Source: a virus
Taxonomy: Duplodnaviria > Caudoviricetes
IMG/VR virus record: IMGVR_UViG_3300036971_000130
Length of the DNA stretch: 64,000 bases
Reading direction: 5' to 3' (one strand)
Part shown: piece by piece, positions 12,887-54,300 of the stretch
How positions within the stretch are numbered: position 1 is the stretch's first letter
Layout of the letters: each line of letters opens with the position of its first letter
The notes under the pieces: generated by a model
What the model saw: the letters and a program-made list of their open reading frames with translations, nothing else
Database searches by the model: none
What the model was told of the DNA's origin: nothing
Program-made: the position numbers and the translations under genes

Positions 12887-12915
12887 TGGACAGGGAGGGC
12901 TCCACCACCCATACT
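12887..12915 (+). promoter_or_regulatory. Promoter of main tRNA array (class I)
   Basis: TGGACA-N17-CATACT, motif repeated >20 times in window. Confidence 0.75.
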
Positions 12916-15977: not shown

Positions 15978-16051
15978 CCCTGGTTAGCTCAGAGGTAGAG
16001 CGCCGCCATGTCAGGCGGAGGTCAGTGTATCGAAAGCACTACTGGGGGCCA
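15978..16051 (+). tRNA. Atypical tRNA-Asp(GTC)-like, 6-nt anticodon loop
   Basis: CCGCC-ATGTCA-GGCGG; T loop ATCGAAA; GCCA end. Confidence 0.6.
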
Positions 16052-19411: not shown

Positions 19412-19565
19412 CTCGGAACTGGCCGTGCGGCCCTTAACCAACGGCCGGTTCCTACTTTCGCCACATCGGTACGCCGATGGTCGTCGACCCTGAAGCCGAC
19501 GGGGGTCGTGAAGCGAGATACCCACCCACCCTGGTACCAAGGGAGGGATGGCACGTCGGCTCCAT

Positions 19566-19641
19566 GCCTGGTTAGCTCAGTTGGTAGAGCATCCCCCTCG
19601 TAAGGGGAAGGCCGTCGGTTCGATCCCGACACCAGGCTCCA
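19566..19641 (+). tRNA. tRNA-Thr(CGT)
   Basis: loop CTCGTAA. Confidence 0.93.
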
Positions 19642-19643
19642 AA

Positions 19644-20000
<357 letters not shown>

Positions 20001-20044
20001 TTCGACCTAGGACACAGGTCATCTCACCACCCATGATGGGTGAC

Positions 20045-20260
20045 ATGCAGACGACCTACGCATCACCCTTCCACCTTCGTGCCGGAGACAAGGTTCTCGA
20101 AACCGATGGTTCGGTTCTCGAAGTCATCAATGTCGGCCAGGTCTTCGATGTGATCACCTGCGGTCTGCACGCTAAGATCGAGCTTCGTGACCAGAACGGT
20201 GAGACCATCACGGAGAACGTGCCGGGCAACGCCAAGGTGAAGAAGGTCATTCCGGAGTAG
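20045..20260 (+). CDS. Small hypothetical protein; stop codon lies inside tRNA-Gln
   Basis: Leaderless after class I promoter. Confidence 0.65.
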   Translation: MQTTYASPFHLRAGDKVLETDGSVLEVINVGQVFDVITCGLHAKIELRDQNGETITENVPGNAKVKKVIPE

Positions 20261-20323
20261 TTCAACTGGCAGAACGACGGGTTTTGGACCCGTTTGTTGC
20301 GGGTTCGAATCCTGCCTCCGGAT
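20251..20323 (+). tRNA. tRNA-Gln(TTG)
   Basis: loop TTTTGGA. Confidence 0.9.
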
Positions 20324-20359
20324 CTAGGTTGGACATCGTCCAGCCCACCACCCATAATG

Positions 20360-20960
20360 GGTTCGTAAGATAGAGCGATCCGATCAGCTTCTTGCGGGAA
20401 GCTGTTAGGACGGCGGACCAGGCCGCAACCTGGTTGGGTGCCCAGCAATGGGGTCCGCCGCCGGTCAGCTTGATCCCCTTCGGGGTAGGGTTGGCGAGCA
20501 CGAACGGAGATACCTTCGACGATTCGTTCGTAGTACCAGTCGAGGGTCGGAGCGGTAAGCTCCGGCAGTCGGGTGTCATGGGCACGTAACGCCTTCGGCA
20601 CCCGACCGGAACACCCAAGTCGTCGCAGCGACTCAAAACAGTGCTTAGGCTGCGAGCGTTCGCTGAACAGCGAGGTGCACTGACCGATCGGATTGCAGTC
20701 CGAGAGGCGGTAGAACAGAGAGACTGCAATCTCTCCGTGATGCCGGTTCACCTGCGTGGTGAGCGAAGGGGTCCAGTCCGAATCCAAGGTCTGGGTCTAG
20801 TGACTTATCGGAGCAGTCCAAGTACATGGGCTGTGTGTGAAATCCCCCAGGGCGACCCCTGGGGGACGAAGCGAGATGGCTACATCACGAACCTAGACGG
20901 CAGTCGAAGTTCGAGGTGGGAGCCACAAACCGGGGGAGGACCCATGTCCTCCCCCGGTAC
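20360..20960 (+). ncRNA. Large structured ncRNA candidate (ROOL/GOLLD size class)
   Basis: Own promoter TGGACA-N17-CATAAT (20330-58); many nested helices; no credible ORF; closing hairpin 20929-58. Confidence 0.65.
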
Positions 20961-20967
20961 ATTTCAG

Positions 20968-21041
20968 GCCGAAATAGCTCAGTTGGCTAGAGCGGCCGTC
21001 TTGTAATCGGCAGGCCATGGGTTCGATTCCCATTTTCGGCT
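20968..21041 (+). tRNA. tRNA-Thr(TGT)
   Basis: loop CTTGTAA. Confidence 0.9.
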
Positions 21042-21259
21042 CAAACCGGTCCTACAGCGGAACTCTGTAGGGGTGTCAGGTGAAACCCAGCCGGGAAGAT
21101 GGTCCGAGAGGGCCGGACTTGCTGGTGGAACCACCTGGCTAGAATCGGAAGGTCGTCCCGATGGCTCCACGGAGCACAGGGCCATAGCACCGACACTCCC
21201 CGGATATGCTGGCGGGGAAGCCACCAACAGGACAGTCAACCCCTGGTGGTGGCACATAA

Positions 21260-21336
21260 CGACCCGTGGCTCAGCCCGGTAGAGCAGCACCATGACGCGG
21301 TGAAGGTCGGAGGTTCGAATCCTCTCGGGTCGACCA
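21260..21336 (+). tRNA. tRNA-Val(GAC)
   Basis: loop ATGACGC, ACCA. Confidence 0.8.
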
Positions 21337-21380
21337 ACTCCCCCTTCCAAGGGGAGTGAAGACGTGGCGTCTCTACTAGC

Positions 21381-21409
21381 TTGCCCTACATCACCAAGTG
21401 GTGTAGGGT
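21381..21409 (+). promoter_or_regulatory. Promoter of Y-RNA/Ro60 unit overlapped by palindrome
   Basis: TTGCCC-N17-TAGGGT; CCCTACAtCAC-caa-GTGgTGTAGGG. Confidence 0.6.
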
Positions 21410-21421
21410 GAGCAAGAACTC

Positions 21422-21568
21422 TCTGCGAGCCAAAGGTTCCCTGTTACCTACACTGCGAATGTACCCCAATCGGGGGACCATCAATCGCCCGCAGAACACT
21501 CTCAGATCAAGCCAAGATCGTCTGATTACCCTTCTGTCACCTCAGACCATCGCCATCGCCTGATCCGA
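21422..21568 (+). ncRNA. Two tandem Y-RNA-like units (21422-95, 21502-68)
   Basis: 5'/3' end pairing, shared AGCCAA..TTACC..ATCGCC; directly 5' of Ro60. Confidence 0.55.
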
Positions 21569-21635
21569 ACCCAACTGAACACCGCCAGGACACGCCAGAT
21601 CGGCGGTCCGAGCCACGATCCCAAAGGGACACACC

Positions 21636-23228
21636 ATGACGTACAAGAACCTCGCCACCCGCCCGCACCTCACTTCGACGCCGCAGACGAAGCAGTCCGA
21701 TCCTCGTCAGGTGAAGAACGCCGCCGGTGGCTACGTGTTCACGATCTCAGACGAAGACCTCCTGCGCCGGTTCCTGATCCTCGGGACGACCGCCGGGACG
21801 TACTACGTGAACGGCACGAAGCACACAGCCGACACGTTCGAGAAACTGCGAGGTGTTTTGGACCGCCTGGGTGCCCGGTTCGTGGACATCGTCGTCGAGG
21901 TCTCCGATGGAGGTCTCGCTCCGAAGAACGACGAAGCGATCCTCATGTTGGCTCTCGCCACCTCGGCGGAGGACCCGGTCGTGAGGAAGTACGCTCTCGA
22001 TGCGCTGCCGAAGGTGGTCCGCATCGGAACGCACATGTTCCAGTTCTCGACCTTCGTGCAGCAGTTCCGTGGCAACGGCCCGGCGCTGATGAAGGCCATG
22101 CGTCGTTGGTACACCGATCGTTCGCCGGAGTCCTTGGCGTACCAGTTGGTGAAGTACCAGCGTCGGAACGGCGTGAGCACGAAGACGGTCCTCGGGGTCG
22201 TCCGACCGAAGCCGAAGAACCCGGAACAGGGAGTCGCCTTCGAATGGGCTGTCGGGAAGCGTGGTGACCAGAAGACCGGTCTCCGTGCGATCGACGGCTA
22301 CATCGCCGCTCACACCGAGGGTGCGGACATCCCTGCTCTCGTCCGTGAGTTCGGACTGACCCACGAGATGCTGCCGTCGCAGTCACTCAGCGATCCCGCT
22401 GTGTGGGTCGCCCTGGTCGAGAAGATGGGCCTCACCGCTCTGATCCGGAACCTGGGTCGTCTCACGAAGCTCGGCGTCCTCGACGACCGTGCGATCCGTG
22501 CTGACGTGATCTCCCGCATCACCGACCACGAGAGCATCCGTGCTGCTCGTGTCCACCCGATCGCCTTCCTGTTCGCTCTCACGGCGTACAAGTCCGGTGC
22601 AGGGCGTTCCGGCACGGAGTGGACCCCGATCCCGTCGATCATCGACGCTCTGGACAAGGGCTTCGTCGAGGCGTTCGTGAACGTGGAGTCCACCGGGAAG
22701 CGTCGTCTCATCGCTCTGGACGTGTCCGGCTCGATGGGGATTGAGTTCATCGCCAACTCGAAGCTCTCCGCTCGGGATGCTTCGGCGGCTCTGACGAAGA
22801 TCGCTCTCACCGTCGACGACTGCGATGTCATCGCTTTCACCAGCGGTGATCGCCGAACCCACCGGGACGCTGTCGCTCCGTTGACGATCTCCGCCAACCA
22901 GCGGCTCGACGACATCATCGACGACATCTCGGACCTCCCGTTCGGTCACACGAACTGTGCTCTGCCGTTCGAGTGGGCTTTGGAGAACGACCGTGTCTAC
23001 GACTCGGTCGAGGTCTACACGGACTGCGAGACGTGGGGTGGGAACCAGCACGTCCACGAGGCGCTGGCGAAGTACCGTCGCAAGACGGGCGTCAACACCA
23101 AGCTGATCGTGGTCGGGATGACCGCCACCGATGCGTCGATCGCTGACCCGAACGACCCCGATTCGTTGGATGTCGTCGGGTTCGATGCGTCGGCTCCGGC
23201 TGCCATCTCCCGCTTCATCTCGGCATGA
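21636..23228 (+). CDS. Ro60/Rsr (TROVE + vWA) RNA-binding protein
   Basis: QVKNAAGGYVF, LRRFLILGT..GTYY, LAYQLVKYQRR, ALIRNLGR, ALDVSGSM, YTDCETW. Confidence 0.95.
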   Translation: MTYKNLATRPHLTSTPQTKQSDPRQVKNAAGGYVFTISDEDLLRRFLILGTTAGTYYVNGTKHTADTFEKLRGVLDRLGARFVDIVVEVSDGGLAPKNDEAILMLALATSAEDPVVRKYALDALPKVVRIGTHMFQFSTFVQQFRGNGPALMKAMRRWYTDRSPESLAYQLVKYQRRNGVSTKTVLGVVRPKPKNPEQGVAFEWAVGKRGDQKTGLRAIDGYIAAHTEGADIPALVREFGLTHEMLPSQSLSDPAVWVALVEKMGLTALIRNLGRLTKLGVLDDRAIRADVISRITDHESIRAARVHPIAFLFALTAYKSGAGRSGTEWTPIPSIIDALDKGFVEAFVNVESTGKRRLIALDVSGSMGIEFIANSKLSARDASAALTKIALTVDDCDVIAFTSGDRRTHRDAVAPLTISANQRLDDIIDDISDLPFGHTNCALPFEWALENDRVYDSVEVYTDCETWGGNQHVHEALAKYRRKTGVNTKLIVVGMTATDASIADPNDPDSLDVVGFDASAPAAISRFISA

Positions 23229-23734: not shown

Positions 23735-23759
23735 AACATGTGTGGTAGCATGTAGGGCC

Positions 23760-24428
23760 ATGAAGCGCCTTGCAGCAACCATCACCGTCGCCGCCGCAGT
23801 TCTCCTGTCGGCGTGCCAGACGGGCACCGCACCCCTCGACAACCCGACCGGGTCGAAGGCTTCTCTTGCTGCAACACCGAGCGAGAAGAAGGCTTCGGCC
23901 CGGTCGTTCATCGCTCAGACCAAGGTCGGAGCGACCTCGTCCGGCAACGACTACGTTCGATCGAAGTTCGGTCCGTCCTGGCCGTCGATCAACGGCTGCG
24001 ACATGAGGAACGGGACCCTCACCCGTGACCTCACCGATGTGACTTACAACGACTCGAAGAAGTGCATCGTCAACACCGGCGTCCTCAACGACCCGTACTC
24101 GGGCGAGAAGATCAACTTCCAGCGGGGAGCCTCCACCTCGTCGAAGGTCCAGATCGACCACGTCATCCCGCTCTCCTACGCATGGAAGATGGGCGCACGA
24201 GGATGGACCGACACCCAGCGTCGGAACTTCGCCAACGACCCGCTGAACCTGATGGCGGTCAAGGGCTCCGTGAACGGATCGAAGTCCGACAGCGGCCCTG
24301 CTGAGTGGATGCCTCCGAAGCCCTCGATCCACTGCTCCTATAGCGTCAGGTTCGCTCAGGTCGCCCAGAAGTACAACCTCCCGATCCAGACCGTGGACCG
24401 TGCGAAGATGGACGCTTCCTGCCGGTAG
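23760..24428 (+). CDS. Secreted HNH (DUF1524-type) lipoprotein
   Basis: Lipobox LSAC; VQIDHVIPL, FANDPLNL, NGSKSD. Confidence 0.88.
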   Translation: MKRLAATITVAAAVLLSACQTGTAPLDNPTGSKASLAATPSEKKASARSFIAQTKVGATSSGNDYVRSKFGPSWPSINGCDMRNGTLTRDLTDVTYNDSKKCIVNTGVLNDPYSGEKINFQRGASTSSKVQIDHVIPLSYAWKMGARGWTDTQRRNFANDPLNLMAVKGSVNGSKSDSGPAEWMPPKPSIHCSYSVRFAQVAQKYNLPIQTVDRAKMDASCR

Positions 24429-30376: not shown

Positions 30377-30685
30377 ATGCAGATCCAAGACATCATCTCC
30401 GCCACCGAAGCCCACGAGAGCGGTCCTCGTCCTCGCAACGTCATGGTCCACACCCCGATGACCCGAGAAGAACTGGAAGCTCGGGTCACCAACCGTTCGG
30501 ACCAGACCGAGACCGAGGTCCAGTTCGTCATCCTCATCGACCCGTTCGACTACGACAGCGAGTCGATGTGGGACCACCTCAGCGACCTGGCTGGCACGAT
30601 CGTGAGCGCCTGGCATCTGACCCCGATCGGGGTCTACCAGGAGAACGTCGTCTACCTCGTCGACTGTGTCGTCGACCTGGACTGA
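30377..30685 (+). CDS. Hypothetical protein
   Basis: Leaderless; resembles C-half of 28965. Confidence 0.6.
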   Translation: MQIQDIISATEAHESGPRPRNVMVHTPMTREELEARVTNRSDQTETEVQFVILIDPFDYDSESMWDHLSDLAGTIVSAWHLTPIGVYQENVVYLVDCVVDLD

Positions 30686-30725
30686 AAACCTGGTTGACCT
30701 GGTCTTTCTCGGGTATCATCCCCGC

Positions 30726-31283
30726 ATGGAACAGACCACGACCGTCATCCCTCTGGGCGTCTTCGACCCGGACAAGAGGACCGTCATCTACCTCGATGTC
30801 GATGGCGTCCTCAACTCTTTCCAGTCGCCGGAGGTGCTGAAGAAGCACTGGCCGGACTTCGAGGTCGTCTCCAAGGAGTCGCCGGAGAGGTTCGTGTCGA
30901 TCTCGATGGTCCTGTCCCGTCGACTCGGGACAGCGATCCGGGCGTACGCCGAGACGATCGGAGCCGAGATCGTCTGGGCGACCTCGCACGGTTCCTACGT
31001 CGACATGTTCGATCAGGAGTCGGGTATGACCTCCCACATGCGCTCGATCGAGTGCTACGGCGAGGAAGTCGAACCCGGTCTGATCTGGAAGATGGGACCG
31101 GTGTCCGAGGACTTCGATGACCGGAACGTCATCTGGGTGGACGATGAACTCACCGAGGAAGACGCCGTCTACCTCACCCGTCAAGGTATCAGCGGCTTCC
31201 TGGTCATCCCTGACCCGTTCAACGGGATCACGAACGGTGACCTTGAAACGCTTGACGTGGTCACGGTCACGCCCCATGATTGA
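30726..31283 (+). CDS. HAD phosphatase (Swiss-army-knife RNA-repair type)
   Basis: IYLDVDGVLN, IVWATS, IWVDDE. Confidence 0.8.
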   Translation: MEQTTTVIPLGVFDPDKRTVIYLDVDGVLNSFQSPEVLKKHWPDFEVVSKESPERFVSISMVLSRRLGTAIRAYAETIGAEIVWATSHGSYVDMFDQESGMTSHMRSIECYGEEVEPGLIWKMGPVSEDFDDRNVIWVDDELTEEDAVYLTRQGISGFLVIPDPFNGITNGDLETLDVVTVTPHD

Positions 31284-53409: not shown

Positions 53410-54300
53410 TCATGGGTGGTCGAAGGTGATGATCTCATTCGTGAGCGGATGACGGCCTGACACGAACTTCTCCATCCCGTCGAATCTGTCGGGGCCGTGG
53501 ACTGCGCCGACGAGAGCACCGGCGATCGCAGCGACCGTATCGGTGTCTCCGCCTGCCATGATTGCCAACCTGATCGACTGAACGGGATGGCCTTGTGCTG
53601 TCTCGATCGCTCTCCAAGCTCCGATGAACGCCCCGAGAGCGGAGCCGTTGCCGGGGACCCGGAACTCCGGATCGAAGATCCTCGGCCAGACAGGATCGTT
53701 GACGAGATCGAAGGCCACCTCGGGGTGGTGGAACCGTCCGGTGGTGTGTCCGAGCCGGACCAACTCGGACCAGATGATGCACGCTTCGACAGCGTGAGGG
53801 TCAGGGTGGGTGAGTTTCGAGACTGCTGCGGCTGCGGCAGCGGTCTTCTCCCGGTCGTGTGGGTGACGGTACCCGACAGGCCAGGTCCGCATCAGGGAGC
53901 CGTTGCCGCTCTTGGCGAACCGCTTCTTCGAGTGGATGACCTCCGAGACCTCGGTCATCTTCGACGGGTCCTCTGTTCCACGGAAGACCGACTTGATGGT
54001 GCTCCCGATGTCGGGCGGGCCGTGGGACCGCCAGGTCAGGAAGTTCTCAGCGACCTTGGTGAGCGACTCCGGGGAGATCAGGTCACCTTCAGCTTCGAGG
54101 ACGCAGATCGACATGGCGGTGTCGTCGGTGAAGGTGCCAGCGGGATCGCCGGAGAGCCGCCCTGGCAGGAACACCGGGTTGCTCGTCCTCTCCCGTAGGC
54201 CCTCGTATCCAGCGCCGAGAGCGTCCCCGACAGCGCATCCGATGAGACTTCCTGAATGAGAAATTTCACCAGCGTATCTCACATATGTGATAGCGTCCAT
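53410..54300 (-). CDS. ADP-ribosylglycohydrolase (DraG/ARH), start uncertain
   Basis: GDALG, TDDT, GNGSLMR, GDTDT. Confidence 0.9.
   Translation of the reverse strand: MDAITYVRYAGEISHSGSLIGCAVGDALGAGYEGLRERTSNPVFLPGRLSGDPAGTFTDDTAMSICVLEAEGDLISPESLTKVAENFLTWRSHGPPDIGSTIKSVFRGTEDPSKMTEVSEVIHSKKRFAKSGNGSLMRTWPVGYRHPHDREKTAAAAAAVSKLTHPDPHAVEACIIWSELVRLGHTTGRFHHPEVAFDLVNDPVWPRIFDPEFRVPGNGSALGAFIGAWRAIETAQGHPVQSIRLAIMAGGDTDTVAAIAGALVGAVHGPDRFDGMEKFVSGRHPLTNEIITFDHP

Follow-up and report, generated by a model that had tools for sequence, protein, structure and literature searches.

What is transcribed from the roughly 600 nucleotides (nt) that separate two tRNA genes in a viral element with its own RNase P RNA and Ro60 gene, and what would become of the product? 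The stretch lies at positions 20330-20960 of 64,000 nt of DNA (from here on, the window) from IMG/VR record IMGVR_UViG_3300036971_000130 (Duplodnaviria; Caudoviricetes). A first-pass annotation, made from the letters alone, had placed there an ornate non-coding RNA of about 600 nt with nested helices, a closing hairpin and its own promoter, and had thought of the large ROOL and GOLLD RNAs as possible relatives. Its placement between tRNAs holds, the stretch being flanked by tRNA-Gln (20251-20324) on its upstream border and by tRNA-Thr(UGU) (20968-21042, + strand; ARAGORN and Rfam, 69.8 bits) downstream. What this work finds between the two is a real promoter-driven and strongly folded non-coding unit, whose one assignable element is a pistol self-cleaving ribozyme, and which is probably not a single 600-nt molecule.

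The pistol ribozyme and the fold around it

The ribozyme, which the first-pass annotation does not mention, emerged from a comparison (cmscan) of 19600-21400 with all 4227 Rfam families at E ≤ 10, and of the whole window at E ≤ 1. The Pistol family (RF02679) matches 20618-20680 on the + strand over the full length of its model (positions 1-68 of 68), with 59.3 bits against a cut-off of 34.5 and E = 3e-8 for the 64-kb window; the ribozyme itself spans 20618-20682. The class is defined by stems P1, P2 and P3, a pseudoknot between the P1 loop and the P2-P3 junction, and a scissile two-nucleotide junction (PMC4604425), and each of these can be located here. P1 (20618-20633, AGUCGU/GCGACU) and P2 (20639-20644 with 20677-20682, CAGUGC/GCACUG) form with probabilities of 0.91 and 0.93 when the partition function is computed for the whole transcript, P3 (about 20659-20674) is paired in the Rfam alignment, and a pseudoknot of 7 base pairs (bp) joins 20623-20629 to 20649-20655 (TCGCAGC/GCTGCGA). 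This last feature is an independent check, because the covariance model omits the pseudoknot. At least 285 pistol contexts came out of viral, genome and metagenome contigs scanned with a core pattern; in all 190 of the 190 unique pistols listed (three collections, 21 pair types) the variable triplets of the pseudoknot are complementary, and the GCA/TGC found here conforms. The conserved core, as read from the upper-case positions of the Rfam consensus (TCGTC..., GCGA, AAA.A, TTAGGC, GAGCGT), is present too. By sequence, structure and pseudoknot alike, this is a member of the pistol class.

The GU at 20675-20676 falls in the model's two junction columns, a junction whose length is strictly conserved in the class (PMC4604425), and the cut is predicted to fall between G20675 and U20676. 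Pistol cleavage yields a 5' product that ends in a 2',3'-cyclic phosphate and a 3' product that begins with a 5'-hydroxyl (PMC4604425). Since P1 and P2 dominate their segment even when the whole transcript is folded, the flanks appear not to trap the ribozyme in an inactive fold. In full-length match, stems, pseudoknot, GU junction and core letters the sequence agrees with the pistols described before (RF02679; Weinberg et al. 2015; Harris et al. 2015, PMC4604425), although those came mostly from Firmicutes and environmental DNA (PMC4604425), whereas this one sits in a wastewater element of actinobacterial type with 61% guanine plus cytosine (G+C). Other pistols of high G+C (contigs L013, L023, L025, L041 and L067) lie between protein genes, whereas this one lies within a promoter-driven non-coding unit in a tRNA array. 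Neither ARAGORN nor Rfam gave any signal for a transfer-messenger RNA, a decayed tRNA, a group I intron or a further ribozyme, and these candidates were dropped; beside the pistol, no other Rfam family matched meaningfully in 19600-21400 at E ≤ 10, and the whole window at E ≤ 1 contributed nothing more.

The sequence on both sides of the ribozyme is non-coding. A codon-usage score, for which the window's own genes served as training set, gives at most 0.02 bits per codon in the six frames of 20320-20980, against 0.45-0.58 for most long genes of the window. The sole sizeable open reading frame (ORF) on the same strand, 65 codons at 20392-20589, scores 0.06 bits per codon, lacks a Shine-Dalgarno sequence, matches nothing in Pfam and has no relative in a search of 5.8 billion proteins, so that a protein-coding reading is rejected on codon score, Pfam and protein search together.

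Its folding, on the other hand, is in excess of what chance would give. The minimum free energy (MFE) of the 643-nt stretch is -311 kcal/mol (z = -7.8), and the + strand folds about 30 kcal/mol more stably than the - strand, as one would expect were the RNA read from the + strand. Local Watson-Crick stems of at least 8 bp number 5 against 0.52 expected (none of 200 dinucleotide shuffles reaches 5), and those of at least 10 bp number 3 against 0.03. The helices singled out at first sight are all there: CAGCTTC/GAAGCTG (20385-20391/20398-20404), CGGCGGACC/GGTCCGCCG (20411-20419/20452-20460), GTCGGGTG/CACCCGAC (20568-20575/20599-20606), GATTGCAGTC/GACTGCAATC (20691-20700/20722-20731) and TCCCCCAGGG/CCCTGGGGGA (20843-20852/20857-20866). 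The 10-bp GATTGCAGTC helix is absent from the thermodynamic optimum, where competing hairpins are preferred, and the closing hairpin is of 13 bp (20929-20941/20946-20958) instead of the 12 first counted. Pairing is nearly all local, non-local stems of at least 8 bp being 2 against about 2.4 expected in shuffles. The main long-range helix, 11 bp between 20375-20385 and 20686-20696 (P = 0.69), would bracket the 5' half and the ribozyme, and was rejected as significant architecture, such helices being equally frequent in shuffles. The idea of an ornate RNA of some 600 nt therefore survives in part: there is support for a non-coding stretch that has strong structure on the + strand and a promoter of its own, and none for its being one single RNA, with a pistol midway and hairpins that are local.

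Promoter, proposed processing and a hint of expression

The promoter claimed for the stretch is borne out as well, as a member of a family. The site TGGACA-17-CATAAT at 20330-20358 reaches 10 of 12 matches in a generic promoter scan, being the sole site within 19500-21700, and belongs to a promoter family repeated at least nine times in the window, GTTGGACA-N13-CCACCCAT(G/A)(A/C)T. In this copy (20328-20358, + strand) the -35 is GTTGGACA (20328-20335) and the extended -10 is CCACCCATAAT (20348-20358). Copies on the + strand are found at 12905, 16951, 19292, 20027, 20348, 25465, 28948, 30360 and 32187, those on the - strand at 53419 and 46847, and the window has 16 copies of the family's 17-mer core where 0.5 would be expected. 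Four of the + strand copies have an ATG exactly 6 nt past the -10 and so apparently serve leaderless genes, and others precede tRNA-Asp, tRNA-Gly, tRNA-Arg and the array leader at 12905. Judging by the spacing, which is as in the leaderless copies, transcription of our stretch would start near G20365. Between 20358 and the Ro60 gene rsr no further family copy and no other promoter-like site was found, so the unit most likely continues into tRNA-Thr (20968), tRNA-Val (21260, between tRNA-Thr and rsr) and rsr (21636), and most likely heads an operon of tRNA-Thr, tRNA-Val and Ro60. The promoter core ACCCATGATGGGT is palindromic and could be an operator as well.

The ribozyme divides this unit into two strings of hairpins. 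The 5' structured segment, of about 250 nt (20365-20617, + strand; MFE -119 kcal/mol, z = -3.8), holds hairpins at 20386-20403, 20411-20460, 20464-20495, 20500-20531, 20546-20566 and 20568-20606, with stem probabilities of 0.63-0.99. The 3' structured RNA, of 292 nt (20676-20967, + strand; MFE -144 kcal/mol, z = -7.5), holds those at 20688-20703, 20708-20745, 20746-20764, 20769-20798, 20813-20834, 20843-20866, 20877-20925 and 20929-20958, with stem probabilities mostly of 0.94-0.99. The last of them is the G+C-rich closing hairpin (pair probability 0.99), followed by UACAUUUCAG; it fails a terminator scan, being without a U tract, and tRNA-Thr begins 9 nt past it without a promoter of its own. 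For these two reasons we take the hairpin to shield a 3' end that RNase P would make, its likely role being either this or that of a weak terminator. RNase P cuts at the 5' ends of tRNAs, and its cut at 20967|20968 would define the 3' end of the structured RNA.

The following scheme can be assembled from these parts. Transcription would begin at the element-specific promoter, near 20365, and run into tRNA-Thr, tRNA-Val and rsr. The pistol would fold during transcription and cut G20675/U20676, leaving a 5' product of about 311 nt (20365-20675) that includes the ribozyme and ends in a 2',3'-cyclic phosphate, and a downstream product that begins at U20676 with a 5'-hydroxyl. RNase P, acting at 20967|20968, would free from the latter an RNA of 292 nt, the 3' end of which would be guarded by the 13-bp hairpin and which would presumably be stable. 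This way, the 3' half would be excised by two ribozymes, and the pistol would separate it and the tRNAs that follow from the triphosphate-bearing 5' leader. Taken whole, with its promoter-driven string of hairpins, the split by the pistol, the 292-nt RNA released by RNase P and the operon with Ro60, we place this scheme slightly on the probable side.

Some hint of such a fate comes from sequencing runs. Three DNA runs (X4, X7, X9) and an RNA-seq run from activated sludge (X11) were mapped on 19600-21700. In the RNA run one contig of 157 nt is identical to 20688-20844, at a depth of 3.6x, and no cover was found in that run on 20381-20664, on the 75-amino-acid (75-aa) gene upstream or on the start of rsr; its other cover falls on the genes for RNase P RNA and tRNAs, which contigs of other organisms match as well. 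A discrete transcript is therefore weakly indicated, for part of the 3' half and not for 20381-20664, a pattern that hints, weakly, at a 3' piece accumulating apart from the 5' piece. The DNA runs hold only identical pieces of the element, and hence neither variants nor covariation.

Several points weigh against the scheme. Self-cleavage at 20675/20676 is a prediction of the model. The RNA evidence is a single low-depth contig from one run, and carry-over of DNA into the RNA library is possible. The closing hairpin could terminate most transcripts, which would weaken the link to the tRNA and rsr genes. The layout is also atypical of its class, with a tRNA within 600 nt in 4 of the 285 pistol contexts listed. 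Finally, no homologue of the flanks was found in any collection searched, and there is consequently no covariation to count in support of a selected RNA over a structured spacer.

Possible roles of the flanking RNAs

The flanking RNAs may be functional, the 3' piece being the better candidate, and the likeliest role for them is that of RNA partners or substrates of the adjacent Ro60. Stated in full, the flanks, and especially the 292-nt 3' piece, would be Y-RNA-like ligands or scaffolds of Ro60 released by the pistol and RNase P, a proposal that we hold to be rather unlikely as it stands. In bacteria and phages, Y RNAs are encoded on the strand of rsr and no more than 4 kb from it (Chen et al. 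2014, PMC4201824); the stretch shares the strand of rsr and lies 0.7-1.3 kb upstream of that gene, its end being 670 nt away. The YrlA model RF02553 does match Ro60-encoding actinophages (Mareelih, TinyTim and Big4, at 52, 36 and 32 bits) and has no match in the window (E ≤ 1) or in 19600-21700 (E ≤ 10).

The sequence evidence for such a partnership centres on one motif. Bacterial Y RNAs have, near their 5' end, the motif GNCGAAN0-1G, which resembles the GGUCCGA contacted by Xenopus Ro60 (PMC4201824). In our stretch, AGUCCGAGAGG (20697-20707, + strand) resembles this contact and lies 21 nt past the predicted new 5' end, and GUCGAAG is found at 20903; the resemblance to GGUCCGA is only 6 of 7 positions, the motif here being AGUCCGAG and not GGUCCGAG, and a bulged helix that would join it to the 3' end was not found. 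Each of the three non-coding segments that precede rsr has one GTCCGAG (20698, 21102, 21606; 3 against 0.28 expected, P = 0.003), the first two copies sharing the 10-mer GTCCGAGAGG. CAGTC is found 6 times in the region against 0.6 expected, and the YrlA-like match of TinyTim has GGCCGAGAG near its 5' end. These enrichments are modest and partly post hoc, that of CAGTC being marginal at about 0.04 after correction for all 5-mers, and the link to Ro60 by way of GUCCGAG can be called suggestive, as far as sequence goes.

Compared with Y RNAs and YrlA (RF02553), the likeness lies in a non-coding RNA at most 4 kb from a Ro60 gene that is read from the same strand, in a GUCCGAG that resembles the Ro60 contact and in the proposed part of RNase P in processing, the YrlA of M. 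smegmatis being an RNase P substrate. The differences are a length of 292 nt, more than twice the 80-130 nt of known Y RNAs, the lack of an RF02553 match and of a tRNA-like domain with its T and D arms, and the lack of an end-to-end stem, no bulged Ro-binding helix between the two RNA ends having been found. In addition, a relaxed core pattern finds no pistol in 80 distant Ro60 loci of viral contigs, and these loci contain nothing similar. The two gaps further down, 21043-21259 and 21337-21635, both before the Ro60 gene, hold exact GGUCCGAG (21101 and 21605), the Ro60-contact motif of vertebrate Y RNAs, and by this token would be candidates for Y RNAs without a tRNA-like domain.

The most specific version, in which the 292-nt piece is a new stable phage RNA with a pistol-made 5' end and a 3' end made by the element's own RNase P, acting as a Y-RNA-like partner of Ro60 without a tRNA-like domain, is decidedly unlikely in our estimate. 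Pistol ribozymes have been known since 2015 without, to our knowledge, an assigned biological role, and such a two-ribozyme Ro60 partner, if true, would give the class its first definite task. The layout is a simple one, with a promoter, structured RNA on both sides of the pistol and a tRNA behind, and close by, in a wastewater element of about 233 kb, are the genes of RNase P RNA, Ro60 and RNA-repair domains. Should the cut be confirmed, a self-cleaving ribozyme would be seen as the step that makes RNA ends in a phage RNA operon, and candidate RNA partners would be at hand for a Ro60 without a recognisable YrlA.

There are parallels in other phages. The T4 species 1 and 2 RNAs are stable and, like ours, structured, non-coding and embedded in a phage tRNA operon; tRNA-processing enzymes free them, as RNase P would here. 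Our unit has no sequence relation to them, and differs in having its own promoter and, for one of its ends, a self-cleaving ribozyme. The theta ribozymes (hepatitis delta virus-like) reportedly adjoin phage tRNAs and trim their 3' ends (PMC10879173), and share with our case a small self-cleaving ribozyme in a phage tRNA region, by which an RNA end would be made without a protein nuclease. Theirs is another ribozyme class, whereas here a pistol 292 nt upstream of the tRNA would define the 5' end of the structured RNA in between.

Next in standing comes the reading of the flanks as a functionless structured spacer in the tRNA array, for example a decayed or captured one, with the pistol alone being functional and serving to segment a long transcript; we consider this unlikely. 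It draws on the failure to find relatives. Searches of the region by blastn against phages and plasmids gave no match, and the pistol segment alone gave only chance matches among phages. No sequence common with the flanks was found in the contexts of the other pistols (at least 285; blastn and nhmmer), a Ro60-based locus search of viral contigs gave no close relatives (the 80 distant loci are those described above), and among viral contigs the neighbouring 238-aa protein is without relatives. In 401 Actinomycetota genomes there were only chance matches of 25-45 nt, the window itself holds no paralogue of the stretch apart from the promoter motif, and the Ro60 phages Mareelih, Big4 and TinyTim have no pistol. 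That pairing is only local, and that about a third of pistols elsewhere, among the contexts listed, precede long ORF-free stretches, is also in keeping with a spacer. A mere spacer, however, would hardly be expected to have a dedicated promoter of the element's own family directly upstream, a strand-specific structure as extreme for neutral sequence as the z of the 3' RNA and the three local stems of 10 bp or more imply, or an RNA contig confined to its 3' half. Were the flanks mere spacer after all, what remained would be one more pistol, in an unusual high-G+C host group.

A cis-regulatory leader, that is, an attenuator or sensor that would control whether transcription passes the 13-bp hairpin to reach tRNA-Thr, tRNA-Val and rsr, is very unlikely. 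The position between the promoter and the first tRNA, with a strong terminal hairpin 9 nt before the latter, would suit it, yet no alternative partner for the strands of the closing hairpin was found, a leader of 600 nt would be very long, Rfam has no riboswitch or T-box match and the hairpin has no U tract. The leader might also look to a six-codon ORF, MATSRT (20876-20896), on the 5' strand of the last irregular hairpin, which includes ACA, the codon read by tRNA-Thr(UGU); it has no free Shine-Dalgarno sequence, is short enough for chance and is probably due to chance. An attenuator based on a leader peptide was rejected, there being just this ORF and no competing helix.

Hardly credible any more is a single large ornate RNA of 600 nt, of the ROOL or GOLLD kind or of a new class of that size: size, density of hairpins and location among the tRNA genes of a mobile element resemble those of ROOL and GOLLD, and the 11-bp long-range helix could join the halves after cleavage, yet neither family is listed at the thresholds of the Rfam searches given above, neither 6S nor any other family of large RNAs has a match in 19600-21400 at E ≤ 10, a canonical self-cleaving ribozyme lies midway and is predicted to split the RNA, non-local stems are no more numerous than in shuffles and long-range architecture was not detected, base composition and host group are other than theirs, and the RNA contig is on the 3' half only.

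Pistol contexts elsewhere and the element

In the few tRNA-linked contexts the order is that of an upstream gene, the pistol, a non-coding spacer of 150-200 nt and a tRNA. The same order of gene, pistol, non-coding spacer (40-200 nt) and tRNA is seen in unrelated phage contigs, L028 (8919-9204), L045 and L180, which by analogy would be a precedent for a layout of pistol, spacer RNA and tRNA. In L028 the spacer has a terminal hairpin with a U tract directly before tRNA-Lys, much as a hairpin closes the stretch before tRNA-Thr here, and in L180 the tRNA after the pistol is tRNA-Thr(UGU), the same as here. In other high-G+C phage contigs the pistol comes after a stop codon and before a ribosome-binding site. 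About a third of the unique pistols listed have an ORF start at most 60 nt downstream; for about another third, some 450 nt of downstream sequence contain no ORF start. A contig of a Streptomyces sp. genome (L067, 4111-7628) holds three pistols and four type II hammerheads on one strand, among small ORFs, within 3.5 kb. Across L052-L282, 158 of the 270 pistol contexts listed have a common downstream sequence, mostly on contigs of gut Clostridia; with over half sharing it, one widespread element family dominates the known pistol census.

The element itself is, from its sequence, a giant phage or mobile element of actinobacterial type. The window (G+C content as given above) has 43 tRNA genes, a class A RNase P RNA of its own (19647-20001; Rfam, 181 bits), type I-C cas genes (Cas3, Csd1), FtsK-like ATPases and, at 21636-23228 on the + strand, rsr (Pfam TROVE and vWA_Ro60). 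The Ro60-encoding contig on record has 233,542 bases, and the DNA of the window recurs in at least eight wastewater metagenomes and one soil metagenome. Its Ro60 is 42-44% identical to that of Gordonia, Microbacterium and Mycobacterium phages, the closest relatives (P0002-P0004) being at 48-54%.

Near the Ro60 gene there are a GmrSD_C/HNH nuclease domain (23742-24428) and the HAD domain of 'Swiss Army Knife' RNA-repair proteins (30666-31283), which together with the tRNAs and the RNase P RNA look like an island of RNA repair and translation autonomy. The P4 strand GAGGAAGGTCGGGGCT of the element's RNase P RNA recurs in L157 (1-352), a viral contig with a host-like RNase P RNA of 73% G+C that is 75% identical overall, and the variant is therefore not unique to the element; a pattern scan for it gave L157 only, with nothing related downstream. 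Between the RNase P RNA and tRNA-Gln lies the 75-aa gene mentioned above (20033-20260), without a PHROG match, which has a strong coding signal (0.54 bits per codon), starts at or near a leaderless promoter copy and has its stop codon 10 nt inside the tRNA-Gln gene. Further upstream, between tRNA-Pro and tRNA-Val (15978-16051), ARAGORN lists a tRNA to which it assigns no identity and a two-base 'anticodon' (gt).

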